This document shows, piece by piece, positions 2,176-50,850 of a DNA stretch of 64,000 nucleotides. A program made the translations under genes and the position numbers. This DNA is from Psammoneis japonica (lineage: Eukaryota): positions 124,001 to 188,000 of the forward strand of contig QPGO01000088.1 in assembly GCA_008632985.1 (NCBI GenBank), given 5' to 3'. The notes under the pieces were generated by a model. That model ran no database searches. It worked only from the letters and a program-made list of their open reading frames with translations, and was not told where the DNA came from. Numbering within the stretch: the stretch's first letter is position 1; each line of letters begins with the position of its first letter.

Positions 2176-2399
2176 AATCTTACCGGTTTGAATACTCTCG
2201 TCGTAAGAAGTCGTTGACGAGCTTTGAAGTCTTCTTCGGGTGCTCCGCTATCGTCGTTTTACCGTGGGATGCAGCGCTGACACCAGGCTTGACGCGCCTC
2301 ATTGCAGTTCGTGATTGGCGTCAGTGACGAGCAGGTTTGCGGGCGGGTCGGAGGGAATTTTCGCGCTTTTCCTAGCTAGCAGTCACGAGTCTTTTTCAG

Positions 2400-2787
2400 T
2401 CACGCATCAGGCAGGCTTCTTCATCGAACGATTCCGTGTCAATCAACCCACCCGTTTGCTCCCTTTCTCTCCATCGCGGCCACACCATCGCTGTCTGCAA
2501 TTGCACTGGTTACATGCCACCTGTGTGACTCTGCTGGATTGAAAGCCAGCAGTGCTTCCTCAACCCAGTCTCTGATCTCTCGAACCCACCAGCTCTCTTT
2601 GCTGGTTGCTTGTTGCTTCTTTGAGCTGCAGATGACTTTTCTCTTGACGATCCTGCCAACTTTTTTCGTGAAATCCCACCAATTTTTTTCTCAATGATCC
2701 TGCTGATGATGATTCTGATGATTCTTTTTACACCTCTTCTCCTTTGGTCTGCCGCACTGCCGATCCCTTTTCCAGCTGCCACGAGCG
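2400..2787. mobile_element. Left part of an older decayed element into which the Copia inserted
   Basis: TpA-depleted like 9904-10870; the two flanks join across the ATCAT duplication. Confidence 0.4.
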
Positions 2788-2792
2788 ATCAT

Positions 2793-3068
2793 TGACAGGA
2801 TTTGAACAGGATTCAGGTGCGCGCGAAATGTCGCGCGCTGTTTAGTTTGCCGCGCACAGTTTTGTGTGCTTCAGTTCCACGTGTTCGCGCACGATGTAGT
2901 TTGCTTTCGAGCCACAAGGCTCACAAGAACAATGACGGCAGCCCGATTGCACCGACTCACACGTCCTTCGGCTCCTGCAACGGTCTCTGAGCGGAGACTC
3001 ATCTGCTGTTTAGACAGCAGCAAGGAGTCATTGTTTGAATTCTTGCCATTTGCCTTCAATTTCTGTCA
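2793..3068 (+). repeat. 5' LTR
   Basis: Aligns without gaps to 9623-9898; 21 differences by eye, all transitions. Confidence 0.96.
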
Positions 3069-4005
3069 GATTGACAGTCTTGCTCATTGTCAACCCATTG
3101 AGCAACCGCCATCATCGTCGTTGATTTGCCGACGACGCCATCTCAATTCTGCGTGGACCTCCGCACATGTTCTACGTACATCGGCAAGTCTGCGTGCATT
3201 CAATGCCAGGCACTGGCAGGAATTTAACGTCACCGTCAAGTCTCCTTGCCGCTGGATGTCTGGATTGATTGTGCCACCTTTGATCGCTGAAGACATGCAT
3301 CAACGGTCACATCCAAGTCTGTCCTTGATCCTCATCCCTTGATGCACCCATTCATCGGTTAACGGTCAAGAACCCCACACACTCAAGGATCTTCATCGCT
3401 GAAGACACACATGTGTGCATGTCTTCACGGCCAAGAACTTGCACCCACTCTTCGGATTGCGGTTTTGCCACCACTCTACAAGCACACCGAGTCCATTGTG
3501 CCTGATCCACCCCGGACTGCTGGTGCTCTGCAGTTCTGCTGGGTCCACGAGGATGACTGTGAGAGCAAGCAGCCGTGGTTGCAGCCTGCGTTGGGGCGAG
3601 GGTGTTTTCCCGCGTTTGTTCGTTCGTCCACAGTGCCTGACGCCTGCGTCAACTGGCCAGCCTGATCGGGAAATCCAACCGACATAAAATGAGAACGGTT
3701 CGGGGGTCTTGTCCACCTCTGGTCAGCTTGCCTGCAGGGGTTTACAACCCGCCACTCCGCTCGCAAGCAACCCAAAGCGACACTGGCTGCAGGTTCCGAC
3801 GTGCCAGCACAACTCTACGGACCGGACAGGAAGTTTAGCACTTGACAACGAACGGGATGACAAAGCCCGGCGACTTCTGATTTTTAAGACAGTTCAAGAT
3901 TTCAAGTCAAGTCTGCCTCAAGTCAAGTCCATTCTCACCCAAGTTTCGAGTCTACCTTCGCTTCCCCAACCAGAATTGATTGTCCTGACACCACTTTTGT
4001 CCACC

Positions 4006-7000
4006 ATGGTTCTCACTCGTCAGCAACAAACCGATGGTTTCGAGCACGTCATTGGAACCGTGCTTGCCCAAGGTGCTGGGAGCCCTCTTCGTTTGGCTTT
4101 GACCCAAGACGGCACGGACTCGCATCAAGAACTGTTCACGTTCACACCGTCCCAAATCGACTCGCTTGAGTGCGACAACGGCACCAATGTGATCCCTTTG
4201 CCCCGCGGTTATAAGAACATGTCAGCAGCTCTAATTAGTCTGTACATTGTCAAAGCACATGAAGGTCTTGACGTTGCCAATGACTCCTCGTTGTTCACGC
4301 ATGACGAGTTCCTTGCCTGCTGCCTCAGCCCCGACTGCATGTCTTCTGTGTCCGTCAGCAGCTCACCCCTCGCACCTCCGCATGTCACCAACCCGACCAA
4401 GGCACGCGACCCGGTGCGAGACTTCAAGCGAGGCATCAAGCATGACCCCACCGCTTTCACGGCTCTCAAATCTGACAAGCAGTGGCACACTTGGCACACC
4501 TCACTTGTGGCACAAGCCCGTGCCCAAGACGTCGAGTGCACTCTAGACTCGTCGTACAAACCAACCAGCCCCGAAGACAAACTGCTCTTTGCTGAACAGC
4601 AAAAGCACATGTTTGCCGTCTTCGAATGCATTCTTCTCACCAACAAGGGCAAGGCTCTCATTCGCGAAAATGTGGGGTCTTCTGATGCCCAGACCGTCTG
4701 CCGCGCCTTGTCTGAGCATGCGCTCGCCTCCACCCGCGCATCTGTCGAGTCCTCCACCTTGCTCATGTGCCTTGCCACCGCACGTCTTGGTGATGGTGCT
4801 TGGAAAGGTCCGACCCACGGGTTCATCCTTCATTGGCAAGATCAGTTGCGCAAGTGCGAGGCACTCATCCCGGCCAGTGACCACTTCTCTGAAGGACAGA
4901 AGCGCGTCATGCTCGAGAATGCCGCACACCCTGTCGAGGAACTCCGTGCTGTCAAGAACCAAGCTGATCAGCATCGTACGCAGAGTGGCAAGAGCCTCAC
5001 ATGTGATCAACACTGTGGCTTGCTCCTCTCCGCGGCGGCTCAATGCAACAGTGCGTTTCAACCCAAGACGACACCTCGAGCTCCCCGACGTGCCACACAC
5101 GCACACGACGTCCACTCCGAGGAACCATCCGACGATGTGTTCTGCGACATTGACAGTGACATTGACGTCCTTCAGGCCAATGCTGCCTGCACCCGTGGTC
5201 CCAGCCTCACCGGTGACCAATGGAAACGTCTCCCTCCCGACCACCAACGGATTTGGGATTCATTGCCCCATTCCTCCAAGGCGATCATCCTTGAGCATTC
5301 TCGTCTGCCTCCCCGCAACCCGCGAGCCAGCAACTGCCATGAGTCCATTACGGCCAACCTTCACGACCAACGCCTTGGGAGTGACGGTGATGTCAACTTG
5401 TCCAACACGACTCCTGCTGACTCTGGTGACCCCGCTCCAAATGTGGGTGCCACTTCGGACAATCCCATCCTGGCGCACCTCACCAAGCGCAAGCCACTGC
5501 CACCCGGTGATCTGCAACGTCTGTTGTCTCCTAACCAAGCCCCCAACGCTAGTCAACCGGGGCCATCCGCCGCTCCCTCCACTCTGCCAGCTCCTGCCGA
5601 TGACATGGAACTTGGCGGCCGCACTCACCGCCACGTCAACAACCACAATGTCATTCACTCTGCCTCTGCTCATCGCTCCACACACACTGGTGCTCTAGTC
5701 GATCGTGGGGCCAACGGCGGCATTGCTGGTGATGACATTCGCGTCATTGCACGCACCTCTTGCCAAGTCGACGTTCAGGGCATTGACGACCATCAATTGG
5801 TGGACATCCCCATTGTCACCGCTGGTGCCGTCATTGAGACCCAGCGTGGTCCCGTCATCGCCATCCTCCATCAGTGCGCATGCACGGGCAAGGGCAAGAC
5901 CATTCATTCCTGCGGCCAGCTCGAATGGCACAAACAGGATGTCAACGATTGCTCTGTCAAGGTGCCCAACGGCTTGCAATGCATTGCCACTCCTGATGGC
6001 TGTGTCATCCCCATTGACATCAAGGGCGGCCTGCCTTGTGTTGCCATGCGACCTTGCACTGACGCCGAATGGGACACCCTGCCCCATGTCATCCTCACCG
6101 GTGATGACACGTGGGATCCTTCCGTCCTCGATCACTCTGTCACTGATGACGACCAGTGGCACGACGCGATCTCTGACCTGCAGGACGATCCCACTGCCAA
6201 CCTGTTTGACGAGTGCGGCAACTGCCGTCATCGTGTCGTTGTCAACGAGACCATCATGTCCGCTTCCTTGTCTGCCGATCACGCGTCCGCCCTTGATGAT
6301 CATCTCATTCCGAACGACGACGTGTTCTACGAGTGTCATCTACACGCGATTGACCCCAAGGATGATGACGTTCTGCCCCCGGAGCACACTGTGCAGCCCA
6401 AGGACCCCCCCTTCGAGTCTCTTCGGCCCCACTTTGGCTTCCCACCTGCCGATGCGGTCCGTCGTACTTTTGACTGCACCACGCAGCACGTCCGCGTGCC
6501 CGCCGGTGCACACCTTGGGAAGGCCTGCAAATCACCCAACCCCACCCTCAATGTGCACCGCCGCAACGAGCCCATCGCCACTGACACCGTTTGTGCCAAC
6601 ACCCCGGCCGTCGACTCTGGTTGCACCAGCACCCAACTGTTTGTTGGCGCTGAGTCTACCGTCACTGACGTCTGCGGCACCAAGACGGACAAGGAGTTTG
6701 TCAACACACTCGAGGATCAGATCCGTGAGCGTGGTGCCCCATCCAAACTCATTGGCAACCGTGCTCAAGTTGAGATCAGCAACAAGGTGCTCGGGATTCT
6801 ACGAGCCCTCTTCATCTCCAGCTGGCAAAGTGAGCCTCACCAGCAACACCAAAACTTTGCCGAGCATCGACACCAGACCGTGAAGCGCATGGCGAACACT
6901 GTCATGGATCGTTTCGGTTCGCCTTCCCACACATGGCTGCTGGCGCTCATGTGCGTGTGCTTCACACTCAACCACACAGCGTCCCCACGTCTCCACTGGC

Positions 7001-9609
7001 GCACACCCCTCGAGACTCTCACTGGCTCCACCCCGGACATCAGCCCATTGCTTCGCTTTCACTGGTGGGAACCCGTGCACTTCCACCTCGATGACTCCGA
7101 TTGGCCGCCCAAATCCTGTGAGTTGCGTGGACGCTTTGTTGGCATTGCTGAGCACGTCGGCCACCAGATGACCTTCAAGATTCTCTCTGACGAGACTCAG
7201 AAGATCCTCTTCCGGTCCAATGTATGATCCGCTGCCACCGATCCTGCCGTTCGAAACCTGCGTCTTGATCCTCCTGATGGGGAGCCACCTGAACCCATCA
7301 TCAAATCCCGCCATGATGACAACCCCGTCGATTCTCCTGATGGGGAGATCAGGACACCCAAGATGCCAGTTTTTGATCCGCAAGACATCATCGGACGCAC
7401 CTTCCTCATGCAGCCACAAGAGGACGGACAACGCCACAGAGCTCGCATCGTCAAGGCCGTCGAAGACCACGAATGGAAAGTGAGTGGCAATCCCGAGCTC
7501 ACTAAGTTCGTCTGCTCTGTCAACAACGACGAACATGAGGAAGTCCTTGCCTGCAACGACATCATGAATCACATTGAGCAAGAAGACGAAGACACTGCTG
7601 TTTGGAAATTTCGACGCATCGTGTCACACGAAGGACCTCTGAAACCTCATGACCCAACCTGGAAAGGCTCAAGCTACAACATCATGCTTGAATGGGAAAG
7701 TGGGGAGATCACGTCCGAGCCTCTTGCCATCATCGCCAAGGACGACCCCGTCACCTGCGCCATCTGTGCACGAGAGAACGGACTTCTCGACACTGATGGC
7801 TGGAAGCGGTTCGTCACCATTGCGAGGCGCCAGAAGAAGCTGTTTCGCATGGCCAACCAAGCCAAGCTTCGCTCCTTCCGCACTGCACCTCGCTACAAGC
7901 ACGGATGCGAAGTTCCCCGGAACTACAAACACGCCATGTCACCAGACGAACGCAACGGCAACCGCAAATGGGGAGACGCAGCTAATCTTGAGATGGACCA
8001 ACTCGGGGAATGCGAAGTCTTCCATGACTGCAGGCCCTTCGAGTCTTCCACTCCTCCTGCGGGACACAAGAAGATCCGAGTGCACCCAGTGCACGACGTG
8101 AAACACGACGGTCGCCACAAGGCACGACTCACAGCCGATGGGCACCTCACGGACGTACCCATCGACAGTGTCCACTCCGGAGCAGTCTCCCTCCGTGGCC
8201 TTCGGCTGATGATTTTCCTGGCCGAACTCAACGAGTTGGAGACATGGGCCGCCGACATTGGCAATGCCTGCCTTGAAGCCACCACCAAGGAGAAGCTCTA
8301 CATTGCAGCCGGACCCGAATTTGGCAAACTCGAAGGACACATCCTTGTCATCCACAAGGCCCTGCATGGACTGCGCAGCTCCGGTCTCCGCTGGCACGAG
8401 CGCTTCGCTGACTGCCTGCGAGCTGAAGGCTTCTTCCCCTGCCGCGCCGAACCCGACATTTGGATGCGCAGGAACGGCGACCACTGTGAATGCATTGCCG
8501 TTTATGTGGATGACCTCGCCATTGCTGTGAAGGACCCTCAATCTTTCGTCAACACTCTCACGGAAAAGTGCAAGTTCAAGCTCAAGGGTGCGGGACCCAT
8601 TGAGTTCCATCTGGGTTGCGACTTTTCCCGGGATCCCGACGGCACCTTGTGCCTGTCTCCGCGCAAGTGCATCGAGCGCATGGTCGACAGCTGCACCCAA
8701 CTGTTTGGGGAGAAACCTGCCACCAACGCCCTGTCACCTCTGGAGAAGGGTGACCACCCTGAACTGGACACTTCCGAACTGCTGGAGCCCAATGGCATTC
8801 ACAAGTTCCAGTCTCTTGTTGGTTCACTCCAATGGGCAGTGTCCCTTGGTTGAATTGACGTTGCAACGGCCGTCATGTCACTCTCTAGCTTCCGAGCTGC
8901 GCCCCGTCAAGGCCAGTTGGATCATGCCAAACGCGTCTGTGGGTGCCTCTCCAAGATGCGACACGGCGCTCTCCGCATTCGCACAGAAGAGCCCGACCAC
9001 TCGGATCTCCCTGCTCCAGCCTGTGAATGGATGCATTCCATGTGCGGCGAAGCAGAAGAGATGATCCCGAAGGACGCTCCACCGCCCCTTGGCAAGTTCG
9101 TCACTGCCACCCACTGCGTCGATGCAAACTTGCACCATTGCATGCTCACCGGACGCTCTGTCATGGGAATGCTCCACTTCCTCAACAAATTCCCGGCTGA
9201 TTGGTTCTCTAAGAAGCAAGCCACCGTGGAGACTGTGACCTGCGGGTCTGAATTTGTTGCCGCAAGGACTTGTGTTGAGCAGATTGTCGACCTGCGCATC
9301 ACCCTGCACTGCCTTGGCGTCCCGATCTGCAATGTCAGTTGCATGTTCGGTGACAACAAGTTGGTTGTAGACAGTGCCACCATCCCGCACTCCAAGTCAC
9401 ACAAGCGACACACCGCACTGTCGTTCCACCGTGTGCGTGAGGCAATTGCCTCTGGTCACCTTGAGTTCCACTTCATCGAAGGCTCCCGCAACCCTGCTGA
9501 CATTCTCAGCAAGCATTGGGGTTGCTCCCAAATCTGGGACCTTCTCCGCCCCCTCATGTTCTGGAACTTCATTCCATCTGAAGTAGAATCTGTTTCTGTG
9601 ACTCCTCAA
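4006..9609 (+). pseudogene. Copia gag-pol polyprotein, one frame broken by two TGA stops (7225-7227, 8851-8853)
   Basis: ORFs 3709, 7363 and 8875 share a frame. Protease LVDRGANGG; integrase region WQSEPHQQHQNFAE; RT DVKHDGRHKARL, DIGNA, YVDDL; RNase H DANL, GSEFVAAR, GDN, NPADILSKHW. Both stops fit CGA>TGA. The end is placed at a presumed erased TAA (now CAA, 9607-9609). Confidence 0.92.
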
Positions 9610-9622
9610 GCAAACTGGGGAG

Positions 9623-9898
9623 TGACAGGATTTGAACAGGATTCAGGTGCGCGCGAAATGCCGCGCGCTGTTTAGTTCACCGCGCACAGTTTTGTGTGCT
9701 TTAGTTCCGTGCGTTCGCGCGCGATGTGGTTTGCTTTCGAGCCACAAGGCTCACAAGAATGACAACAGCAGCCCGATTGCACCGACTTGCACGTCCTTCG
9801 GCTCCTGCAACAGTCTCTGAGCGGAGACTCATCTGCTGTCCAGACAGCAGCAAGGAGTTGTTGTTTGAATTCTTGCCATTTGCCTTCAATTTCTGTCA
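9623..9898 (+). repeat. 3' LTR
   Basis: Copy of 2793-3068, preceded by the PPT and followed by TSD ATCAT. Confidence 0.96.
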
Positions 9899-9903
9899 AT
9901 CAT

Positions 9904-10750
9904 CCGCCGCCGGTCGCCTCCCCCAGCTTCTTCTCTGCCACCCTCATGACCTCCTGCCACCTTCTCTCTGCAGCACACCTCTCTTGTTGCTGCGGTGCAT
10001 TCCTGCATCTCACCCTCAACTCTGCTCAGACCTGGTGTCCTCAAGACTCGCCACCTTTCATGTTCTGTGACATGGACTTGCTTCTTGTTGCGAGACCACA
10101 CTTGGCTGGCATCAAACTGGGTGCCCTTCTCCGATTGCCACCCACCTGGGCCTTCTTCCTGCTTCTCACCATTTTCCTCCATTTGTGATCCTTCTGCTGC
10201 CACCCCATTTTGCTCAGTTTTTTTGTCCTTTGGCCCCTCCCTGCTCTCTCCCCAAGTTCTCATCCTTTTCCTGCCCTCCCCGGGTCCACTGCTTCCTCCA
10301 CAAGAAGATTGGCACCACTTCCAACCAGCCCTCATTTCCCTTCTTGGCACTTAAAAACACTGTGGATCTCCAAGTTTGCACGCCATCCCCAGCTCTTGCC
10401 CTTTTCCTTTGCACATGCCTCCGTGCCTGTGAATCCAATGGCGAGCCTCCCCTCCCTTTTGTCTTTCAAGTTCTCATGCACCTGCCTTCTTCTCTCCTTT
10501 GACAAAACTTTCTCCACGCACATTGACAACTGCCTTGAGAACTCTTTTGTCACCCCTGACATTGCTGCAGTTGACCCACCCTTTCCTGGCACTCTCTCCC
10601 ACATGATTCCACCGCCTTCTCTTTCTGTTCCACCTGCTGACTCCCCTTCCATTTTGGCAGCCACTTCGATGCACGTTTCTGCTGCCCCTCATGTCCTCCC
10701 TCACTCTTGTCATCAGGCTCTTGATGTTTTCACTTGGTTTAAAAGCCCTC

Positions 10751-10788
<38 letters not shown>

Positions 10789-10870
10789 GGCCCTGCATGA
10801 TGCTTTGCACGTCCCTTCTGCTCTTCCGCTGCCACAGCTGCTTTTCCGTGCCTCCTTCTGCTGTTCCATT
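9904..10870. mobile_element. Right part of the older decayed element
   Basis: Pyrimidine-rich, nearly TA-free and CG-poor. Family not recognised. Confidence 0.4.
10751..10788. repeat. (GA)n microsatellite
   Basis: Read directly, with one interruption. Confidence 0.95.
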
Positions 10871-11410
10871 CTGTTCTCAATGGGCTCTTTAACCCTGTGC
10901 TTGGTCTAAACTCTCTGCTCCCGGTACGAGAGGGCCTTTCTCTAGTGGAGGTGCCAAAGTGGCCTGACCTCAGCTTTCTTACATGATGCCGCATGCGACT
11001 GTGGACTACCAACTGCCGGCCTCTCTAGAGGAGCAGTGTCACACCAATCGATGCAATTGCTATTGTGGCTGTATGAATATGAAGTGACAGCGGCGAAGCG
11101 ACTAAATCGGCGATCCATACCGCTAGAGTAAGCAGGGCCTATGAACGCCCACAATCTCCACAATGAACATGCTTGCAGGAAGTTATAAACTTTTTCTTAT
11201 TTTTCAAATAGCCGATGATGAAGGAACCGTTAGTTCCAGTGTGCAAAATTTTGTGCATGTACAAACACCACAAAACAAAACGATCTAGCCGGCCCCAAAT
11301 ATCTTTCTGCGAAAAAATACGTTTCCACACCGTAAATTAAACGTTCGGTGCGTCAACTTGTGGCCAACAATAGTTGGCTTTTCATAAAACTGTACAACTT
11401 TTAACAACCC

Positions 11411-12703
11411 CTACAAGCGTCCTGTCAACACTTGCCCGTTCACCAAGCACTGACCGCTAACCTGTGAAGCCTGCACATTCCCACCAGAGTGGTGGCGTTG
11501 ATGATACCCAGGAGCGGGAACCATTGAGACATCCATGCTACTGGGATTGTGCTGATAATGGACCATTCCGCCGTGAACAGGGTATGCAATGTTATCAACA
11601 ACCACGTACTGCTCAGTGGTCGGCATTCCAGGTGTTGAGTTTGCCACGACCGGAGGACTAACGCCCACGGGAATAATGGCAGGAGCACTGTTCACGGAAT
11701 AAGTAGTAGAGCACGACTGTTGACTTCCAGGGGTCGCTCCAGCCGATACCAGAGATCCGGCAATCCCTTTCGAGGCAACTGGCATTGAATGGTGTCTCTG
11801 CAACACATGAGACAAGTCCCCCACTATTCCCGAATCAGAGCCAAGCGGAAATACTGGTTTGCTTTGCTGCTCACCGGTAACTACCTGAAGAGGAGGAGCG
11901 CAAGGGTGCGCCGTCGGGGATGGAGTTATTTGAGCATGGTTGTTTGATGCACCTATCGATTGATGACCGTAATCCGCGTGGTGCATTGTTTGTGCCTGAC
12001 AATCAGCAGTAACGATGACATTTCCAGCCAGAGTCGGAGCAATCTGTGAAGATACCGTCGCCGAATGTGTCATCGTCTGGGGCTGTTGAACGTCGTGTAT
12101 ATTGACACCCGTACTTGGAGAATGAGACTGCAGCTCTGCTCGGTACTTTTGGAATAGCTCCGGAGTGACATGGAGACTAAAGTTAATCCGGAATAGGAAA
12201 TCGACTTCAAGACCGTTCATCTCTGAAACGAGGACTCCGCCCACCTTGGCATAGTAAGCATTGTTGTAGTAAGCATCGTCAAAGAACTTCGCCGCTAGGA
12301 GGATAGCGGTGATGACAACGCGGTGGACGTTCAACTCCGTAAGAAGAAAATTATTGCGCTGGATCAACCGATCGATGTAAATAAGCGCGAGGATAAAACA
12401 TTCGTTGGAACACGAAGCATATTTATGAATTCTGAATCGTTGTGATGTCATCCGAGTCGAAAGAAGCGGGGTGAGAACAAAAGCTAGGAGGAATTGCAAT
12501 GCAGTCGTTCTTCACTGACTGACTAACCTTTCCAAGTATTGATGGACACCAATTCCAGGTGCTTTCAGAGCATGAAATTTGGTGATTTGACCTGGATCGG
12601 CACGAGCAAGTGAAGCATTGGCCCCCACGAGCCGTTCGAGTACCGCCGCAAGGACACCAACAAGCGCCATTCCCTCGGCTGCTTGTTCTGGTGTCGTATC
12701 CAT
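11411..12703 (-). CDS. P/U-type (PHO80-like) cyclin; exons 12703-12528 and 12431-11411
   Basis: [39 protein letters not shown] and [32 protein letters not shown]. 96-nt intron 12527-12432 (AG|gttagt ... ttcag|A). Low-complexity C-tail. Start codon less certain. Confidence 0.88.
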
Positions 12704-22098: not shown

Positions 22099-23671
22099 TA
22101 CAGACGCGTTTCCTTCTTCAAACTACACAGTTCACTTCCTTCACACCCACGCATCGAGCATTCGATCATCAACACGATGATCGATGATCCATCTCTACCT
22201 TCGAATCTCAAGTCACAAGGAAGCTACCTCTACTCTCTACCGGTAGCTAGAGAGAGGTCAGAAGTAGCTAGCTAACTCTAGTAGTAGAGAGTAGATAGCT
22301 CAGGCGATGTTAGAAGCGCTTGCTTGGCATGGGCAGCCAGCAGTCGGCAAGGGCTGTGTGCCAACTGGTGCGCACATCGGTCAAAGGACAGACGATGCTA
22401 GCCTGTGCTTCATTCAGCAAGAAATAGACGCGACGACGACCGACGCACATAGTTTCCCTCTAACCAAATGCATCGATAGATGGCAACATGCGTGCTAGAG
22501 GCCCTGTTACCGGTGCGATCCATTATCTCATGGTAACGCCCATCATCTATTTCTGGCAACAAAATGGCTGTAAACTGCAATCTAAACTGCAGGCTTGAAC
22601 ACAAAATTGCACTGAAATCCCCAAGCAATCCACATGTCCGAGTTAACAAATCGTGACTGTCAGAGGTTGATTGGCCGTTCCATCTGCCAAACACATTGAA
22701 CACAACACTTTCTGCCTTCCAGCATGCATGTACAAAATGTGCAAAATGCCACCATTGGCCCGGACCTCAGCTGGAAGACACGCCACAGCTTCAACAAATG
22801 CAGCGACAGCTTCAGCGGGGTCGACTCGAATGTCATGTCAATGGGTCTCCGAGCTCATGTTGCCCCATTCTCCAACAAGGACTTCTTTTCTTGCACAACA
22901 GCTGAGGCATCTTGAAGGGTTGCATGTGACATGCATGTAAAAGCAGCGGTCTTCTTCTTCATGTTTCGGACGTGTTCCAGTCCCAGGTGACGCACAAAAC
23001 GACAATCGGATTTTGAATGTAATTTGTGTGTCTTCAAGTGCATGCAGCATTTCAATGTGAAACACTTAGATGGATTGACTTTTGTGGGCTTCTAGAGCAT
23101 GGACATTTAAATGGTTTTTTGTGGGGCATTCAAATCCTCATGGGACATGCATCACAAACTTCCTCAGCAGACTCAGTGCTGATTGTGCGTCAGTGGATTC
23201 ATGCAAAGATTTTTTTGCAGGCAGAAAACCCACCAAGCAGCATCCTAGAATGATGCATTTGGGTGACATCCAAACAACGGCAATGTTTTCGCCGAAAATC
23301 ATCCGTTGTGTTGCGAATCTTTTAACGCAATGAAAAACACAGATGTCACAATGACGACGACATTGCAACACTCACACGAGTCTTGTCAGTGTTGCAAAAC
23401 ATTCACATTTGCACAAATCTACACTTTTGGTGGTGAAAGTTCGATCGTGAGTTGGGGACCGCGCAAAAATCGCGCAAATGTCGTTTTTGTGCACGATTTG
23501 GTTCACGTGCGGCTGGAACACGTCTTCGGGGGAAAGTGTCGCTGCCAAGAAAACAACGCCAAGCAAACACCGAGTGTGAATGTGTCAGAAATGCCTTCCA
23601 ACAAGGGACACTGTGTTGGGGTTCTCCAGTGTGCCAAACACCTTTGGCGCTGACAAGACTCCATTTCGTCT

Positions 23672-23733
23672 TGCCCAACCTGCAAAGCTTGATGATGCAA
23701 GCTTTCGCTTTTGCTTCATCAGCGCGGTTGGCA
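23672..23733 (-). ncRNA. Hammerhead ribozyme-like motif (type I), copy 1
   Basis: Minus strand CCAACCGCG-CUGAUGA-A-GC-AAAA-GC-GAAA-GCUUG-caucau-CAAGC-UU-UGCAGGUUGG. Confidence 0.65.
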
Positions 23734-24029
23734 TTTTTCTCGTGAGCCAAAAAAGTCGAGATCCGCATTTTCAATGGCTGAGGTTGCAGCTGACCTCACT
23801 TGCCGTTAAAAAACAACGGGCCACCAGGAACGTGCCAATGCATGCTGTGCATGCAGTCTTTGCCCAAAACTTCGTTGTGGAGAAAAAAGTGGGCATCGTC
23901 TTCTCAGTTGATGGTCTGAGCCTGCGAGGCAAAGACTGGATGGCATGGACTGGCCTGCTGTCATTTGGTGATTGGGGTTTTGTGTGACCCTAAATTCAAA
24001 AAAACTCAAATGGGCGTAAAAAGGTCGTC

Positions 24030-24872: not shown

Positions 24873-25244
24873 GCCAACAACTTGCCAATTGTGGCAATGA
24901 CTCAACTCCGGCAAAAAACTCAAATGGGCTGCCTGCCGCGCCTGCAGCACTGCGGCTTGCGCCCACTTGAGTTTTTTTGAATTTAGGGTCACACAAAACC
25001 CCAATCACCAAACAACAGCAGGCTGGTCCATGCCATGCAGTCTTTGCCTCGCAGGCTCAGACCATCAACTGAGAAGACGACGCCCACTTTTTTCTCCACA
25101 ATGGAGTTTTGGGCAAAGACTGCGCGCGCACAGCGCGCATCGGCACGTTCCCAATGGCCCGTCATTTTTTAATGGCAAGTGAGGTCAGCTGCAACCTCAG
25201 CCGTTGAAAGCGCCGATCTCGACTTTTTCAGCTCACGAGAAAAA

Positions 25245-25306
25245 TGCCAACCGCGCTGATGAAGCGAAAGCGAAAGCTTGCATCGTCGAGCTTTGCAGGT
25301 TGGGCA
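25245..25306 (+). ncRNA. Hammerhead ribozyme-like motif (type I), copy 2
   Basis: CCAACCGCG-CUGAUGA-A-GC-GAAA-GC-GAAA-GCUUG-caucgu-CGAGC-UU-UGCAGGUUGG. Confidence 0.68.
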
Positions 25307-25365
25307 AGATGAAGTGGAGCCTTGTCAGTGCTGAAGGTGGTGTTCAGCACATTGGAGAACCCCAA

Positions 25366-25370
<5 letters not shown>

Positions 25371-25442
<72 letters not shown>

Positions 25443-25444
25443 NN
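25371..25444. repeat. (TG)36 microsatellite ending at an assembly gap (NN at 25443-25444)
   Basis: Read directly. Contiguity across the gap is not guaranteed. Confidence 0.95.
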
Positions 25445-37772: not shown

Positions 37773-40700
37773 AAATTGACATTTGGCAAAAATTCAGCAA
37801 AATGAAAGCTGATGGAATCAACAGACAGGGCAAATTAAAAAGGACAAGAATGAAACAGGGTGGGTGGCTGGTTGGATTTTGCAAAATCACCTGATTCTGG
37901 CAAATTAAGAGGGCGGTCCAGAGATCGCCTGGTGCACTTTTTATGCAGAAACTACACGAGAGCCAAGCACGCACATTCCCACATGGACGCAGTGCAAAAA
38001 CACCAAGCGGCACTCCATCACGACTCCTCGCGACACCCCACCTGATGAGAATCCATCAAAATGGCGTCGTGCACATCTTTCTGCAGCTCCTCTTTCACTT
38101 GCCCGATTTCTCCAAAAGGGCCAGGGAAAAGCTCATGCATTTCTGTTGTGATGGAACAATGTAAATGCAAGTTGTTTTTTCATTCCAAAATCTCAGAATG
38201 CAGCGCAACATGTTGTCAAGGCGAGCTTGCACGTTGGCGGTGACAACTCCAGTGAATGTTCACTCCACAAAAACAACAGCGACATGATGCCCCAGAAAAA
38301 TGAGCTCTGCACTCTAACGGCAAGTTATTTGGCTAATTTTTCTTTAGGGCTTGCACTCTTGTGCTGTTTTTGGAGACTTGGCACTGTGCATGATTTGCCC
38401 CGACTTTCACCTCCACAAATGTGTTGCACAGACTTAGCAAATGAGGCAAACAAGTCACATGTTTCTATGTCACAAACTGCCTTGTAGCTGTGAGACTCAA
38501 CGCAAACCATCACAATTGCCATGGTGCGTTTCTCTGTTGAACAAAACTCCGCATCACCTTTTGGATGCACGTCAAATGCTCGGCCAAATTGCTCTGCGAC
38601 AAATTGGAGCTGCCAAGAGCTTGAACATCTTCAGACACCACAGACCCAAGCTTCCACATTTGTTGTGAAGCCATCCGGATGCTGTGTCTGTGACTTGGAC
38701 TTGTCATCAGACTGCCGTGGCCGTTGCAAGGTAGAAGTGACACTCAAAGGAAGCATTTCTCTCTCAGGGATGGCTCATGGCAAGGGAGACCCCACAGAAC
38801 AAAACAACAATGAGGAAAGACAACATGTGTGTAAGTTGAAAGAATGTGAACGTATGAGCACTCAACGAAATGCACAGAATGAATGGTGATGCATGAGCTG
38901 CGTTTTGATGCAACAAAATCGGCGGTGTCAACACCAATCTTCAGTTCAAAATTTCACCATCAGCTGCCCATGTGAACCTGTGCACTCTCAAGCTTGTCAC
39001 ATGCCTCATGCTGTGACGTGTGATGTTCCGTTGAGAGTACACTACAAAGTACCTCAGAAACAGCCGCATTTTTGAAATCGGCAAAACGCCATTGTCCGTG
39101 TTATTTTGCGTGTTGTTTTGCGTCGCGAGCCAGAAAACACTCCCAAAAACTGTTCTACAGGGCGAAATGCACTGAATCTACACAGATTTGGGTTGCACCA
39201 GGCCACGTAGAAAATGAACGGGCCGAGAACTGTGGTGCGCCCTCTTAAGAATCCCAACATCCGGGTCACTTTGGGTGGGTTAGACAGCTGCCAGTGCCTC
39301 CTGGTTGCTTGAGGTTCACACATCATCACCCTGTGTTTCATGCACAAAGCCACACATTGTCATGGCACATGATGTGGCTTTTTGAAGTTGCGTCCCATGC
39401 AATGCTCAGAACAAACAAAAACAACACATCTCCCACCATGGGACTTGATCATTTGCAGCTTGGTGGCTGCAATGTTGATCAAGATGAGAGAGTGCAGTCA
39501 CACCACCACAAAACAGTGCTCTTTTTGATGGCTGTGCTGAATTTCTTGGCACCATTGACTGACATGCCATGTTTGGACATGCCAACAAGCAGCGTGTTTG
39601 CCAACTTCTGTGAGGTGCAATTGTTGGCATCCAAGGAATGCACACATGTGAATGGCGTCATTTTTGTTTCTGCAAGTTTCCCATGACAGATGCATTGACA
39701 ACACACCATGATGCATGACATGGAAAAGGAACAATGGAAGAATGTCTTTTTTCCCAAAGAGAGAAGAAGAGCCAATTTGTGCAAAAAGCACAGTTGTTGG
39801 ATGCTGCAAACAATTGTTGGCACCAGCGACTCTCCCATTTGGGTCTTGGCAATTGTCTCTTCTTGTTTGGAATTTGGAACATTTTTTGCTTCCTCATCAA
39901 AGCAACAAGTGCAGTCACAACACCTTGCCTTTTTCACCCCATGGTGTCAATGCAGCTTGGCTGCATGCATGATGCAGCATGTGGTGCATTTTGTCATGGG
40001 ACAGTGTGTGAAACCCAACAGTGCAATGGGTGGGACCTCCAAACCGCTGGCAATTGGATCTGCAATCAGCTTGTTGAGCTTGTTCCGAATCCATGGTCAA
40101 ACAGGTTGGAGGGGGTGTCCTTCCTTGTGTCTGCACATCATGTGCAACGGAAGCTGATTTTGCTGCCAGCAAACACTCCAGCTGGCCACCCAACATGGAT
40201 GCAGTGAGGGAGAGCACATGAGAAATGCAAGAGCATCAGAGTTGTTTGAGCGGTGGGACTGACATTGCAAATGAGGTGCCCGAATTGTCAACAAGCACAT
40301 GGGTGTTGCTCCACCCCATTGAATGTGGCAGGACCTCAAATGCAATGAGCCCAAAACCCACATTCAAAATGAAAGACAGACCCAAATTGTTCAATTGCCC
40401 CCCAGGTGAGTTGTCACCCCTCTGATGCATTGATGCTGCACCAGTCTCTGTTGATGTGAGTGGCACTTTTGCTGCACTCAAAATTGATGGCTGCAGCTCA
40501 TTGTGAAAATTTGCCATCCATTTTGTTGAAACCAGAAATGTCACATCTGTGATGGTTTGTTGCTGACTGCTTGCTGGGTGTTGTGATGCTCATGAACACC
40601 ACAAAACAAGGGGTGGCATTGCAAGATTTCATCTTGCAAACACAGTGCATGTGGTTGTCAGACTGTGTGTGCAGGCCTGTGTGTGAGTGTGTGAGGTGAA

Positions 40701-43700
40701 AGTGGAACATGCGCAGAGTTGCCTCACTGCCGGCACTGAGTGAGTTGACAGGCAATGGATTTTTGCCGGGCCCCAATCTGCCGCACGGACTCCACAAGGA
40801 AGACAAATTTGTGTTCAATTGCAAGGCTTTTGCACAACATAAAAAAATTCTCATGCTTTTTGTGCATGGATGCAGCCACTCAAAAATTTAACAGAACATC
40901 CCAAAAGAGCTTTGGAGCCTGAATAAAAATTCCCATTTAATGGGAACAAGGTCATTGCAAAGTGCTTCTCAAAATGTCTCCAGTGAAACATGTGCTGTCA
41001 CCAAAACAGAGGCCTGTTGGCAAAACAGAACCCTGTCCTTTGTGTGCAATGACAGCGCACAATGACACACAACAACACCATGGCAAGCATTTCCAGATGA
41101 GATCAAAGTGATTCAACAATGTTCATGTGCTTCATTCTTGGGTCAAGTTGGGGCTTTCCTTGCTGCTTGTTGTCATGTCATTTTACATCATTTTCACCCA
41201 TGCCCATGTTTTTTGCTTTGAAGTGAGGCCTCGTGGTCTTGCACACATCATCTCATGTGCCGCCAGCTGCACCAACAGCTTTTCCTGCAACAGGGTGTGG
41301 TCAGTTGCATTGTCAGACCAAACCCAAATGTGCATGACCAACTGGCCCCACCCCGGCCAGCTCATGCTCAAATCTTTGGCACACAGGACAAACACATGGA
41401 ATTCTGCAGGACAATTTTAGCCACTGGCCAAATTTGTTTGGGATGTCCCCATGCCTGTTGGACTGCACTGTGGAATGTGCAGCAGTTTCCCCTCCTTTTT
41501 CATTGGCGTGCATGTTCAAAGTCACGCAAAAAATCTCATCAGATTCCAGTTTTTGAAGCTGCCACTGCAAACAATGGTTGCAACATGTGCTGCAAGCAAC
41601 ACACACATGTGCACAAGCAAATGTGGACAAAACATGGACATTTTCTGAGAAAAGGCACACAGGCTGTGCAACTGCAGTGCAATGGAAGGTGTGTTTGAAG
41701 CTTGTTCCCAAACGGTGTTTGCACTTGCAACATGGCAACCACAATGAGACAACAAATGACATCTCCTCTTGTTCTGTTGTGACACTCAACAAGCATTCTT
41801 GCCTGCTGAATCTGACAGCAACTTGCAAGTCCTCTCTGAGCTTTCACACACACACCTTCATGCTTGCATCTGAACTTTGCTGCATCAGGTGCCACAAACC
41901 TGAGTGACACAACAAGCAAATTGGTTGGAGAAACATGGGCACTTTGTGAGAAAAGAGTGTGGGTCATGAGATTGCAGTGCAGCACAGCTCTGCACAAGAC
42001 AAAAGTGTTGCTCTTGAAACACACTCACAGACAGCTGCACAGCAGAAATGGTTTTTGAAGTGCATCTTGAGCAGCACCCATGTGAAACACAGAAACCAAA
42101 ACAAGACAAAATGTTTCTTGTTTTGGGCTGCCATGGCACCCAGCAAGCAACTGTTGAGAAACCTCAAAGACAGCTCTCATGTTGCCTTGTCAGTGCTCTT
42201 CAAATGAGAAAGGTCCTGCTGGCAAAATGAGTCAAACTTTGCACCACAATCTTGACCACAACAAAATGTGAGTGTGTCTGGTTGCACACAAATCTGAGAT
42301 GTGCACTGGCATGACAAAATTTCTTTCATTGTGACCAGCCAGTTTTGTCTTACATTGTCAATTGCTTGATGCAAGCCCAGCATGCCGGTGCAAAGACAAG
42401 CAATCCTGCACATTAAATCATGGCACAATGATGAATGTTGACTCACAAGTTGACTTGTCCAACACAATCTTGTTGCCTGCCACATGTTGCTGCCATCATG
42501 TTGCTTGCGCCAAGCATCTCCATCTCACTCCATTTGCAACATGAAGAATGGTGCATTTCTTTGCTGTGACAAATGACCGTCCAGTGTGTGGCAAACATTT
42601 TCTTCTAACTGGTCTTCAACATCACCCCAGAACTCATTTTCCCTGCAAACTCTCCTTTTCTCACAGCATTTGTGCTGTTTCAGGCAACAAATTGAAGGAC
42701 AATCATTGCAAACATCTGCAAACAGGAGAATCCAAAGAACTGGGTGATGCCACTCCCTCTTCTGCCTTTTCCCCTCCCCCCATTGAATTTGTTGCAATGG
42801 GGTTTCACTTCAACACCGGGTCCACTCTGCAAGTTCACGCACAACTCAATCCCTGGGCACTGAGATCAAATGGTGCAGTCACCCCAGCATGAGAGCCACA
42901 ATCTTCTCACAACACTGCCATCATGCCAGCCACCAATGATGTTTCAGAGTGCCGATGCCCTGACAAAAAAGGGTTTGGCTCTGATTCATTTGATGGTGCT
43001 GCATCTCCTTTTGTCAACAAGGGTGCCACCACTGTTGTCAAATCAGGTTCTTTTGCTGCACTGGATCAAGTTGTGCACCTTTCCGCTGACAAGGATCTTG
43101 TTGCTCCCAAAGCACACAACAGCAAAACCATCTTCATGGCTGGCATGTTGAGTCTGTGTTGCTCCAAGGGTGTCCCAACTGCCGGGTAAAAACCAATTGT
43201 GTGTTTCATGTGACATTTTTGTCTGAACTGCTGCCTGCCTGCCACAAATTTTGACCATGCACAGAATTGGCACTGGGTTCTGCATGACAAACTTTAGCCA
43301 CATGCGCAGTGCCTGGCACTGAAAAAAGGCCACATGTGCTCTCTAATGGGACACAGCATGCAGGTGCAACATCAGAGGCCCGTTTCCATGAATTGTCTTG
43401 TGGTCTGACCAATGGACATTGTTTGTGATGGCATTTGTGAGAGCCCACACATGCATTCATTTGTGATGAATCATGGTGATTTAACACAAATCATGACCAT
43501 TCACCACAAACAGTCGTGATTGAAAACAAACAAATGTCCACACCAACCAACAAATGTCCGCGGACTTTCCAAAACAGCCACCAATCCTAACAAATTGGGT
43601 GCAACCCAGTCAGTTGATGACTCTGAACTGGTTGCTTCATGGGATTTTACTTTTCTCATTGCTGCTGACTGGGTGATGACTGAGTGCAGTGTTTTGATTT

Positions 43701-46700
43701 GTTTTCAATTTTTTGCGGTTGAAGTCGCTCAACAGGAAGCCTCCTCCAAGGAAGAAAATGGAAAAACCACTTCCACCCACCGCTTTTCCTCACAGGAAGG
43801 ACACGTTTTTTGCCACGGACCATGGCAAAAATGATGCTTTCGATCACCAACCGGAAATGATTCAGCATGTTGTCAAGCACCCAAAGCTGCGCGGATTTGC
43901 TTTTTTGCTGGAGGATGACTTTGACAAGTTGCAGCTGGATCAGTTGTTTGTCGAATCTTGGAAGATTTTGAAAACCATCAAAACCAAGGGGGAGGAAAAT
44001 TCTTGCCCTCCACATCATGTGCTGGACTCTGTTGCATGTCCCATTGTCCTGGAACACACCGATGGTCTTTCACAAGGAAATCATGGAATGTGCTCAAACG
44101 TCAAGAGATGCATTGACAACAGGTTGTGCAAAACTGTCTCAAAGAAAATGGTGGATGTGTCAGCCTCACAGGAATCATGTGATGGGGAGAACATGGCAGT
44201 TCAAAATCTGCACCAGTTCTCTTGCCCTGTGCAGAATTGTGTTGTGAAGCACCGTCAGAAGAAACCAACAATCAAGGGAAATGGATGCACCAGTGGACAT
44301 TGTCTGACATGAGACATGCTCTTCTTTCTTGGAGCACATTCTCTGCTGCCATGCATTTTGTCATCATTCGCACAGACACCTGGCAGTCATGCAGAAGGAC
44401 CATGCTGTGATTTGCTTTGGGACACAGCGAGTGGTTGGATGCATGGACACCATCCTGTGCCACGGCAACAACTCTGCTGACTTTGACTTGGGAAAGGTTG
44501 AAGCTCAGAACCACAAGGACTTTCATCATTTGAATGAAGATGATGTCACAGATCATCAAGCAAGCAACAGTCCACAGGAGAATGATGCAGGTTCAACTCA
44601 CAATTGGCAGATTGCTCATTGTCATCACAATTGTCATCCAGATCATAAAAAACACAAACGCGAGGAGTGCATCTTGAGACATCAGCGGGGGACTCAAAGC
44701 GGCAAGAATGACCACAGGGAAACCGATTGTCAATTGACGAGGGAGTTGTGGTGCTTGCCAATGAGCTTGGCTTCAATGGAGATGCTGCAGAAGCAACTCC
44801 TCCCAAGGATGGACCAACAGCACTGGTGTCAGGAACATTCTGGATGGGGTCATCATCAGTCGATGATGCACCCGCCAACAATGATTCTCTGTCCAACAAC
44901 ACCTCGACTTTGTCATTGACTGAAGGTTGCAACTTGAAGGCAAGGGCACTGATGGAGTGATTGGCAGACTGTGGGGCATTGGCCATGGTGCCAGTTGACT
45001 GAGCAACAGGATTCTGGTTGTTGTCTTTCTTGGATGAAGTGAGCAGAGGTGCCAGAGAACCAGGAGACACACTGGAGGACTCCTTGCTCTTCTTCCTCCT
45101 CTTGGTGGAAGAGACAAATTGTGCCTTGGCCTCATGGGAAAGGCATGGACACATGAGATTGCAGACACATGATTGCACAATTGCAAGGTTGTGGAACTTG
45201 ACATGATTTGTGTCCTTGCAGGAATGCTTGAAGGTGGAACAGAGCTCACGTTCAACCAACTCTTGGTGTTGTTGTGCCATGCCTTTTGCCAAGGCACAAG
45301 TGTTGATGCAAGCCTTGGCACATTCCAGATGATTGGTGAGGATCTTCTTGGCAACCTTCTGCCCATCCTTCAACTTCTGAGCTGTGTTCATCAGGGTCAA
45401 AACATCATTGCAAAACAGCACGACCTGTTTCCTCTTTTCGCAGCCGGAAAAAATGATGGTCAACCAGTGTCGAAAATTGCCAAACTCTTTGTTGACGTGA
45501 GGCAGAAAGCAACAGTCCATTGTGGCAGCAGCAATGCTCAGGCATTGTGCAAAAAAATCCAATTTGGATCTGAAGCCAGTGAGCCAAAGGAAGCAAGGGT
45601 CATTGCCAATTCGTTTGCTCACTGTCATCTCACATAAATTGTCAATGATTGCATGGAAATGTTTGCTGAATTTCGGAAAGATTGGACAAGGTTTCGGCCA
45701 GGTTGCAGTGCTCCAGAACACACCTCCCATCTTGGCAACAAAAACACATCCAGCCACAACTTTTTGCACATGAAAACCATCTTTACAGCCAAGAGAATGG
45801 GCAACTGTGTGTCGTTGACCATCAACATTTCCATGAAGAAATGGGAGGCTCGATTCTGGTGGTTATGACAAATGAAGGGCAGGGCAATGAGATCAGCGGA
45901 GGGAGTCCATTTGTGAGTCATAATGAACTGCTGAAGGCTGTGCTGCACATTGATGATTTTTTAAAATTGAGACTTTGTCATGTGGGCACCGTCAACACCA
46001 TTTGTGTGCACTTTGGCATGGTTGTCAGGAACAGAACCATTGCTTCCATCTAAAGAATTGTCACCCACATCGTCTTTGTCAGAAAAAAAAGATCACTGGC
46101 ACAACCGCGAAGGTCTCTGGATGCAGACGGCATCCTGGTGTGATCATTGCCTGGAGCAGATGAGTTGTTGCCATCAGAGTCATTGTCAGAGCTAAGATTG
46201 ACATCATCAGAGAGGCTTGCCACCATGTTGGAGGGCAAAAAAATGTCATCAAGCACCCCGTCGTGGTCAGGAGACGTGACAAAGCGGTGAGATGGTCGAG
46301 TTTTGCATTCGGCTGTTATCCCCGAATGACTCAGAGCAAGAAAAGTGTCGCGGCTTTTGCTTGGGTGTGACTTTGAGCAGGGGCATGATCGCAAAGGTGG
46401 GAGAGGCAAACTGCCATTGGCAATCGTGGCATGAACAGAGGAAGTGGAAACCCATGGACTTCTTGTTGTGCCACTTTCGCGGTTCTGCACTGACTCACCA
46501 AAAACACAGGGGACTGGATCCGTGGATCACAAGTGGAAGGGACAAATGCCCCAAACACAATCACTCAGGTGGGTGGCACATGTGAAAGATTGTGGCTCGC
46601 TGGTGGGAAGGGGGTTCAGGAGGGAAAGCAGAAAAGGGTGGAAATTTTTGCGGAATGATCAACATCCATCATGAGGACGGAAATGCAGAACTTTTGGCAA

Positions 46701-47675
46701 AAATGCCACATCCAACATGAAAATGAATGTTCTTCAGTTGGCACGAAATGCAACCATCCTTGGTTGAGGGAATGATGCAGCCATGTGACTTGGCATGTTG
46801 GCATTCAAGTCAACAAATGCAAATTAAATAAAATGGGTTCTGGGGCAACAGGTGCAAGATGTGCTTGTCTCCGAATTCAAAATGAATGAAAATGTGGCCT
46901 TTCTAACAAGTGAATGTTGATTTTAATCTGCAGGGGGGTCTGCCAATGTGGGCACACATGCACATGCCATGAGATGGTGGGGTTTGATGACCTGTGACTA
47001 AAGGCCTTTTCCACAGGTCTCTGATGAACAGCAAGACAGTGGCCCCTCATCTTTGCCACTCCATTGGCACCTTCTCAATGCAGCTTGACCACAGGCATTG
47101 AATTCTGTTGTTGGTGCTTTGACAGCAATGCTGCAAGTGCTCTGGCAGTGCTGCCATTGGGGCACACTTGGGGAGAGCATCTTGATGAGGCATGACTGGT
47201 CTTTTCTGTGCTTGACCCAAATCTGGAGGATGCATTTGTGCAACATTTGTTGCCAGCTTTGCTGTTGCGCAGCCAACTTTTTAACTCACAACAGTTGGTT
47301 TTCAATGTGGTTGCTGCAATCACAGGTGTTTGCAGCACCTTTTGGGATCTCCCTCAATTCCACCAATTGCTGATGCACACACGGAGCACATTGTAACCCC
47401 ACGCATTTGTTCCCTGTTTTTGCCCATGTCTGTGCATCCGGCACATCATGTGTGGCATTTGAAAAAAAGAGAAAAAATGTCAAAGGCATCACACTTTTCC
47501 ATCAGACATTGATGCATGTGGGATTCAGCACACATTCTGTGTGTGGTTCCTTTGTTGTCTTTGTGTGTGTTTGCTTGTGTGTGCAGAAACCAGCACACTT
47601 CCTGTGTGTGCCTTTTTTGTGACAGCTGTCCAAACCCTGCCAGACTGACACACAAACCACACAATTAATTTTTAC

Positions 47676-50600: not shown

Positions 50601-50850
50601 ATCTTTTTACAAAGCAATTTAAATTTTGGTTTTTGTTTTGCATTTGATCCTTTGGTCTGTGATGACCAAACCTCTTTTCCATTTGTGCTTTGTGTTTGAA
50701 CATGGTTTTTACTTTCTCCACCCTGTTTGTGCATCACTGCATTTGCTGGCATCTTGCCTGTGCCCAAGTCATGTCCATGTGTGTGCTTCCCTCATTGTGC
50801 CCAACTTTGTCCAGAATTTCAGTGCATGTTTCTCTGCTGCATTGTCAGCT
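47676..50850 (+). pseudogene. Decayed transposase, tentatively Plavaka-like
   Basis: QLQDLIDNPLF, V(C)(C)TNKT, EPFVFS..AW.P.GF, NVRN(C), FP...GF..L..LT..QKMGKLFVL resemble that family from memory. Multiple frameshifts; needs an HMM check. Confidence 0.5.

Follow-up and report, generated by a model that had tools for sequence, protein, structure and literature searches.

Differences between the long terminal repeats of a diatom copia-type retrotransposon point to loss of TpA steps after insertion

The element at 2793-9898

The stretch analyzed here, called the window, comprises 64,000 nt of contig QPGO01000088.1 of the diatom Psammoneis japonica (positions 124,001 to 188,000 of the forward strand), and all positions are given in window coordinates. 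It carries a copia-type retrotransposon with two long terminal repeats (LTRs), which differ from each other by transitions only. The pattern of these differences points to a process that turned TpA into TpG or CpA after the element had inserted. A repeat search in the first 14 kb of the window identified a sole direct repeat pair, 2793-3068 and 9623-9898, with a length of 276 nt and 92% identity, which was aligned without gaps by MAFFT. No third copy of the LTR was found by self-BLAST of the window. The following features were assigned to the element:

2793-9898: copia-type LTR retrotransposon, 7,106 bp
2788..2792, + strand: left copy of the target-site duplication, ATCAT; the same five bases abut both LTRs
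2793..3068, + strand: 5′ LTR, 276 bp, TG..CA termini; from repeat search, MAFFT alignment and tabulation
3709..7227, + strand: open frame of 1,172 codons; putative gag-to-integrase counterpart by collinearity with the related element L003
7363..8853, + strand: reverse transcriptase frame (Pfam RVT_2, E 1.5e-23); conserved tyrosines mostly cysteine or histidine
8875..9675, + strand: C-terminal pol frame; in relatives, the part that follows the reverse transcriptase aligns with it
9608..9622, + strand: putative polypurine tract, rich in purines, with GGGGAG at its end, and immediately upstream of the 3′ LTR; seen in the flank of the alignment
9623..9898, + strand: 3′ LTR, 276 bp, TG..CA termini; from repeat search, MAFFT alignment and tabulation
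9899..9903, + strand: right copy of the target-site duplication, ATCAT; the same five bases abut both LTRs

Direct LTRs with TG..CA ends, a short target-site duplication and an RVT_2 domain (84 bits against a cut-off of 31.6) are thus all present as features of the Ty1/copia type. Because both LTRs have TG..CA ends and share the ATCAT flank, 2793-9898 is one insertion of a Ty1/copia-type LTR retrotransposon. The frame at 3709-7227 has no Pfam match, and the integrase family rve was not matched in it even at E 5; the intact relative L003 is likewise without a Pfam integrase match. The collinearity of the frame with L003 covers about 1,100 residues (47% identity) in the N-terminal portion of the polyprotein, from gag to integrase. 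In the C-terminal pol frame, eight of nine conserved tyrosines are cysteine or histidine.

Differences between the two LTRs

Tabulated from the alignment, the LTR pair shows 21 differences in 276 bp, which are 21 transitions, 0 transversions and 0 indels, as already counted in the initial annotation. Five of the sites are reciprocal doublets, with TG in one LTR and CA in the other, and all five lie exactly where that annotation had placed them; the alignment also agrees with it on three sites that have TA in one LTR only (2872-73, 2897-98 and 3011-12). The differences at pyrimidine-purine steps are the following:

2848..2849: reciprocal doublet, TG in the 5′ LTR and CA in the 3′ LTR (9678-79); probable ancestral TA, context T_C
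2930-31 and 2933-34: two reciprocal doublets 3 bp apart, CA/TG and TG/CA; probable ancestral TA, context A_A
2958..2959: reciprocal doublet, CA in the 5′ LTR and TG in the 3′ LTR (9788-89)
3029..3030: reciprocal doublet, CA in the 5′ LTR and TG in the 3′ LTR (9859-60)
2872..2873: CA in the 5′ LTR, TA kept in the 3′ LTR (9702-03)
2897..2898: TA kept in the 5′ LTR, TG in the 3′ LTR (9727-28)
3010..3012: TTA in the 5′ LTR, CCA in the 3′ LTR (9840-42); one TpA change and an adjoining T to C change
2879, 2880, 2882 and 2891: four single CpG losses in a CGCGCG run (2879..2891)
2937/9767 and 2982/9812: two more single CpG losses, in the 3′ LTR

Only two differences, 2831 and 3010, fall outside the TA and CG steps; both are T/C, and 3010 adjoins a TA. 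Sorted by class, the pyrimidine-purine steps comprise one TA conserved in both LTRs, three with TA against TG or CA and five with TG against CA, next to 17 conserved CG and six with CG against TG or CA. The 21 differences can therefore be broken down into about 13 TpA to TpG or CpA events at eight sites, six events of CpG decay and two others. When 21 transitions were placed at random on the 5′ LTR in 100,000 sets, at least five reciprocal doublets were obtained 0 times, with a maximum of four, and at least seven adjacent pairs 29 times.

If the doublets are read as former TA, the outcomes amount to two TG and four CA in the 5′ LTR and to four TG and three CA in the 3′ LTR, and the doublets at 2930-31 and 2933-34 show opposite outcomes inside each LTR. 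The outcomes are strand-balanced in each LTR and opposite at neighbors 3 bp apart, which suggests independent hits and not one strand-wise pass. This bears out the earlier claim of mutations that arose independently in each LTR and on both strands. That they arose after insertion, when the LTRs had been identical, holds as well, one insertion being shown by the ATCAT duplication. A 14-mer rebuilt in the initial annotation could not be upheld, because a T is required in its third unit at a position (2936) that is C in both LTRs; at the site next to it, a change from CG to CA in the 3′ LTR alone is the simpler reading.

The complete lack of transversions had been taken as the mark of a young element that was hit hard. 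The LTR pair of L003 (1-537 and 7493-8029 of that element), an unaffected relative, served as a control and shows 19 transitions, one transversion and no reciprocal doublet. As this pair is also nearly free of transversions, the telling feature is the doublets and not the absence of transversions, which is weak on its own; the inflation of the LTR age inferred from it stands (see below). The L003 pair further indicates a strong transition bias in this group of elements even without TA loss.

Direction of change in pol, in other copies and across the window

Columns of conserved tyrosine and arginine were taken from an alignment of the reverse transcriptase/RNase H region, in which at least 60% of 120 homologues have tyrosine at the tyrosine columns. 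At the 29 conserved tyrosine columns the element has tyrosine five times, cysteine 16 times, histidine five times, tryptophan once and phenylalanine twice. The 31 arginine columns read arginine 29 times (27 of them with CGN codons) and histidine twice. Since tyrosine is largely lost and CGN-encoded arginine is kept, the change from TA to TG or CA is the dominant one in the element and CpG decay a minor one. The upstream frame of 1,172 residues misaligned with the homologues and was left out of this alignment; it was compared pairwise with L003 instead. Over 1,749 residues aligned between the element and the intact L003, tyrosine is replaced by cysteine or histidine 47 times and the reverse occurs 0 times; the tyrosine share of pol is 0.5% in the element and 3.8% in L003. 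With so many conserved tyrosines gone, most of the change must postdate the last transposition. The tyrosines lost relative to L003 became cysteine in 32 cases and histidine in 15, so that A to G on the sense strand is about twice as frequent as T to C; this bias may be a strand effect or a 3′-neighbor effect of TAC codons.

The closest relatives are metagenome copies with 57-71% identity. Dinucleotide frequencies, given here as observed/expected ratios (rho), lie mostly at 0.6-0.9 for TA in 50 related metagenome copia loci. Three of the 50 (L036, L034 and L018) are low in TA (0.13-0.31) and show replacement of tyrosine by cysteine or histidine. The CpG-poor relatives L032 and L046-L048 have lost arginine to cysteine, histidine, glutamine, tryptophan or stop and kept tyrosine, which is pure CpG decay. 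Most of the other loci keep most of their tyrosine and arginine, with some arginine also lost in L027, L033 and L013. The tyrosine/arginine test thus separates the process of TA loss from that of CpG loss. Because L036, L034 and L018 show the same signature, the TA-erasing process is not confined to this organism.

Other copies of the family were examined by mapping 13,972 contig pieces of sequencing run X1, with at least 80% likeness, onto the element; their number shows that the family is very abundant. Of 570 variable places in the family, 40 were listed, and the following counts of family states refer to these 40. At 20 of them this copy has TG or CA where the family has TA (depth fractions 0.14-0.74), and at nine it has TG or CA where the family has CG (0.88-1.0). 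The remaining places comprise one coupled case (3469/3470), two at which this copy has CG and the family CA, six transitions off these steps and two transversions. TA-derived sites are thus polymorphic among the copies and CpG sites nearly fixed as CG. The family reads C in 99% of the depth at 9710, and this difference is therefore a change from CpG to TpG in the 3′ LTR. At 9780 both LTRs have CA and 63% of the family depth has TA, which makes this site a candidate for a hidden double hit on the same strand. Loose ends of single contigs give weak evidence of CG at the site of 2891 and of TA at 2897-98, the latter in one other family copy (one contig of run X3). A 32-nt LTR motif spanning two doublets, degenerate for pyrimidines and purines, matched only the two LTRs within the window and had 0 matches in metagenome, genome and viral contig collections.

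All 20 listed places with TA in the family have a pyrimidine 3′ of the TA, and 19 of them lie in 3128-3538. At 3142, 3213, 3382, 9000 and 9796 this copy has C and nearly all other copies have T, in contexts other than TpA (CAT-T in four of the five). The C at 9796 is common to both LTRs, so that at least this change predates insertion. The five sites are either subfamily markers or a secondary target context.

Across the window, the element has rho values of 0.14 for TA, 0.85 for CG, 1.54 for TG and 1.39 for CA, and the genes at 12-20 kb have TA values of 0.63-0.69. Compared with the 0.6-0.9 of its relatives, the element has lost about four fifths of its TA. In a 36-kb block at 24001-60000, TA falls to 0.03-0.10 and CG to 0.11-0.44, with TG and CA values of up to 2.0; none of the 12 long frames at 24-60 kb matches a Pfam family. 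Several repeat pairs in this block differ mainly by transitions, and reciprocal TG/CA doublets also occur in other repeats of the window, with eight in an inverted pair, 14 in a 348-bp pair and six in a tandem pair. The inverted pair (23608-24019 and 24957-25373) spans about 415 bp with 89% identity and differs by 39 transitions and two transversions. An alignment of a four-copy family of old repeats (23.6, 25.3, 29.8 and 34.7 kb) contains both CG- and TA-derived patterns. Segments related to the inverted pair lie at 29.7 and 34.6 kb, and an NN gap is located beside it at 25443-25444.

The flanks of the element and two of the neighboring genes were assigned as follows:

739-2247, - strand: PEX11
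2378..2792: left flank, TA-poor (2 TA in 415 bp) and C+T-rich; TA density is normal further left
9899..10880: right flank, TA-poor (2 TA in about 980 bp), C+T-rich and CpG-poor (rho 0.24-0.36)
11411-12511, - strand: cyclin

The scarcity of TA in the flanks may be due to spill-over of the process, or else the insertion took place in sequence that had been affected earlier. Other ordinary genes in the neighborhood encode a glutaredoxin-thioredoxin reductase, a threonyl-tRNA synthetase and a SET protein; a fragment of the threonyl-tRNA synthetase is 79-84% identical to proteins of many diatoms, among them Attheya, Nitzschia, Seminavis, Skeletonema, Chaetoceros and Thalassiosira, in agreement with a diatom host. 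Positions 1-500 (TA 0.09, CpG 0.11) are the margin of a further affected block. On the - strand at 61826-64000, a copia-type reverse transcriptase frame distinct from the first (RVT_2, E 5.6e-15) runs off the end of the window; the region of 60-64 kb is less affected (TA 0.36). In the element 46 TA survive, of which two follow A and three precede T, so that ATA and TAT are almost gone. The TA surviving in the old block at 40001-56000 are mainly found in TTAA, TTAC, CTAA and ATAA.

Origin of the differences and comparison with known systems

In formal terms, CG is as parsimonious an ancestor of a TG/CA doublet as TA is, a caveat that the initial annotation had raised itself. All five doublets and the six CG singles could accordingly be put down to methyl-CpG deamination, with a TA poverty of the LTRs that predates insertion. 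CpG decay does act in the element, as the six singles and the family C at 9710 show, and CG-derived doublets are present in older repeats of the window. Four indirect lines, namely class counts, coding rates, the ancestral number of TA and tetranucleotide context, nevertheless disfavor this explanation. The class counts were modeled with a loss p per copy, giving means of N(1-p)^2 for no change, 2Np(1-p) for single and Np^2/2 for reciprocal differences. The likelihood is logL -9.07 with all doublets from TA and -14.18 with all from CG, which is 167:1 for TA. From the 17 intact CpGs and six singles, 0.26 CG-derived doublets are predicted (P(>=5) 9e-6), and a free mixture (N_TA 12.9, p_TA 0.81, N_CG 23.6, p_CG 0.15) assigns 94% of the doublets to TA. 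In the element's own pol, 22 of 27 conserved tyrosines and two of 29 arginine CGN codons are lost. These rates agree with the LTR losses if the doublets are read as TA (13/18 TA and 6/46 CpG; Fisher p 0.49 and 0.47) and clash with them if all are read as CG, which requires a TA loss of 3/8 (p 0.027) and a CpG loss of 16/56 (p 0.025). Using the coding rates, the odds for TA are 20-79 to 1 per doublet. By its composition an LTR should hold 15.9 TA at a rho of 1 and about 11 at the TA density of the relatives; the ancestral number would be about 13 under TA ancestry and only about 4 under CG ancestry. Read as TA, the doublets have the contexts ATAA (twice), TTAC (twice) and TTAT, which are almost lost from the element (rho 0.08-0.13), and the TA surviving in the LTRs are TTAG or GTAG (0.33 and 0.15). 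If read as CG, two of the doublets would have the context ACGA, in which CpG is better preserved than in any other context of the element (rho 1.43). Three of the LTR differences, moreover, involve TA and do not fit methyl-CpG deamination as the sole cause. On this statistical basis the doublets probably descend from TA and not from CG, and an origin by methyl-CpG deamination is improbable.

The three differences between TA and TG or CA might also have arisen by repeat-induced point (RIP)-like mutation from C to T, with TA as the derived state. The direction of a single difference between two copies cannot be read from the pair alone, and RIP yields transitions only, as described in PMC2621366. 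The direction of change in pol, with 47 tyrosines lost to cysteine or histidine against 0 in reverse, refutes such an origin of the TA sites, as does the 5- to 30-fold depletion of TA: TA was lost and not gained, both in the element (rho 0.14) and in the old repeats (0.03-0.10, with TG and CA at 1.5-2.0). RIP also cannot make TG/CA doublets from one ancestor, and it has next to no chance of being the cause. In the scheme of reverse transcription, both LTRs of a new retroelement copy derive from one template. Editing before integration, either ADAR-like on RNA or on single-stranded cDNA, would therefore be common to both LTRs and hence invisible here, and the divergence of the LTRs of one insertion at TA steps shows that the process works on chromosomal DNA. 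The preference of ADAR-type enzymes for a 5′ U would match TpA (bioRxiv 10.64898/2026.01.13.699255). However, the hits are spread about evenly over the two strands of each LTR, and the signature is also found in the inverted repeat pair, in tandem repeats and in the flanks, which makes editing at this stage highly unlikely. Just as unlikely is that the differences stem from assembly mixing or recombination among copies, for which the abundance of the family speaks. Against it, both 276-bp LTRs are tied to unique flanking sequence, the same 5-bp duplication is present on either side, with a chance match expected about 1 in 1,024 times, and a pattern of transitions only would not be expected from mixing.

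The preferred explanation is a single insertion followed by a process that turned TpA into TpG or CpA on chromosomal transposon DNA, together with slower CpG decay, to which a probability of roughly 85% is given. Several points weigh against it. The models behind the polarity of the doublets take all sites of a class to have equal rates, and strong rate differences among CpGs could mimic the doublet pattern. A homogeneous TA model under-predicts doublets relative to singles, as a fit to the unchanged and single classes gives P(>=5) = 0.006; the excess needs heterogeneity among sites, which the context effect makes plausible. In the older four-copy repeats of the window, CG-derived doublets are found (CA/CG/TG/TG and CA/CG/CG/TG), and one of the five doublets of the LTRs could be CG-derived, the expected number being 0.06-0.27. 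None of the 40 listed variable places out of 570 falls on a doublet. The sequencing runs X1-X4 represent one sample, possibly the material from which the assembly itself was made. The right flank, which is poor in CpG as well, could be an old repeat instead of spill-over. Finally, the process may be a by-product of chromatin state rather than a defense, and the responsible enzyme is only a candidate.

According to the preferred explanation, a Ty1/copia-type element inserted once into the diatom chromosome. As chromosomal DNA it would then have been subjected to a change of TpA into TpG or CpA, in which A:T is replaced by G:C wherever the A of the step on one or the other strand is hit. The target of the process would be transposon and repeat DNA, and the neighboring genes are spared. 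Of the ancestral TA steps, put at 13 per 276-bp LTR, each copy would have lost about 80%, independently of the other. Hits in both copies on opposite strands would give a TG/CA doublet (five sites), a hit in one copy TA against TG or CA (three sites), and hits in both copies on the same strand nothing visible (about 4-5 expected). CpG decay to TpG or CpA, about ten-fold slower, would have added the six single differences and ordinary background mutation at most two. Per site since insertion, the hazards amount to about 1.66 for a TA step, 0.16 for a CpG and 0.005 for an ordinary site, the last value resting on two events. The Kimura two-parameter distance of the LTRs is 0.083 over all sites and 0.0099 without the presumed TA and CG sites. 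The hot sites thus inflate it 8.3-fold, which confirms the earlier claim that LTR dating overestimates the age of the element. For the underlying reaction, the first guess would be a targeted deaminase that acts on adenine in DNA, by analogy with the proposal for Bigelowiella natans, and the second a modified thymine that mispairs with G.

The mutation from TpA to TpG or CpA of a diatom retrotransposon after its insertion amounts to a clean natural experiment, in which the LTR pair serves as a built-in before-and-after comparison of a process that works on chromosomal DNA and not on RNA or cDNA. For such elements, ages based on LTR divergence are inflated about 8-fold. Because TAA and TAG vanish, dead elements retain long open frames; gene finders may call them as genes, and annotated 'proteins' poor in tyrosine and rich in cysteine and histidine may be mutated transposons. 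Whether diatoms possess a transposon-directed DNA editing of A:T to G:C at TpA in chromosomal repeats, a mirror image of RIP that is common to or convergent with Bigelowiella and possibly SAR-wide (stramenopiles, alveolates and Rhizaria), is a proposal with about even chances.

The diatom Ty1/copia retrotransposons share with the element the RVT_2 domain, short TG..CA LTRs, a 5-bp duplication and a diatom host; the group concerned is presumably that of the CoDi type. Methyl-CpG decay of silenced transposons likewise produces TG and CA from a palindromic dinucleotide on either strand and is present here as a second, slower component (six singles), but it leaves the TA loss, the replacement of tyrosine by cysteine or histidine and the excess of doublets over singles unexplained. 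RIP changes C:G to T:A at CpA and thereby makes TA and stop codons. As known from Neurospora and other ascomycetes, it resembles the process described here in that it consists of transitions only, affects repeat DNA in the chromosome, kills coding capacity and inflates ages. Its direction is opposite, since RIP creates TA and here TA is destroyed. Full-text literature searches returned only fungal RIP papers and the B. natans preprint and yielded no description of the process for diatoms or retrotransposons; a paper on diatom methyltransferases, in its passages on RIP, mentions it as a fungal process only (PMC9998398).

The closest known system is the TpA hypermutation of nucleocytoplasmic large DNA virus (NCLDV) and virophage sequences in B. 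natans. In mutation-accumulation lines of this alga, two integrated viral regions were reported to mutate about 1,000-fold faster than the rest, with changes almost only from A to G or T to C and all on TpA, and an ADAT2-like DNA adenine deaminase was proposed by the authors (Mettrop et al. 2026, bioRxiv 10.64898/2026.01.13.699255). Other parts of the B. natans genome were also reported to contain sequence poor in TpA and rich in CpA and TpG, in which reverse-transcriptase and DDE domains are enriched (bioRxiv 10.64898/2026.01.13.699255). Both systems have in common the change from A:T to G:C at TpA, the loss of TpA with a gain of CpA and TpG, and foreign DNA as the target. They differ in the host, a chlorarachniophyte there and a diatom on a different branch of the supergroup here, and in the target, which in the preprint is integrated viral DNA and here an LTR retrotransposon with repeat blocks. 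Furthermore, TA depletion is far deeper here (rho 0.03-0.14, against 0.45 reported for the B. natans viral region), and the mutations were observed directly in B. natans, whereas their timing here is deduced from the LTR pair. Change at TpA is seen in the present element from the 47:0 replacement of tyrosine by cysteine or histidine, from the three single LTR differences and from 20 of the 40 listed places, next to the doublets, whose polarity we infer. Its sequence is poor in TA compared with the genes and rich in TG and CA, and the divergence of the LTRs of one insertion at these sites points to an origin of the changes in the chromosome. The element thus adds a new case to a process of which one description, from an unrelated alga, exists so far, and the signature extends from one alga, described in one preprint, to diatoms and retrotransposons.

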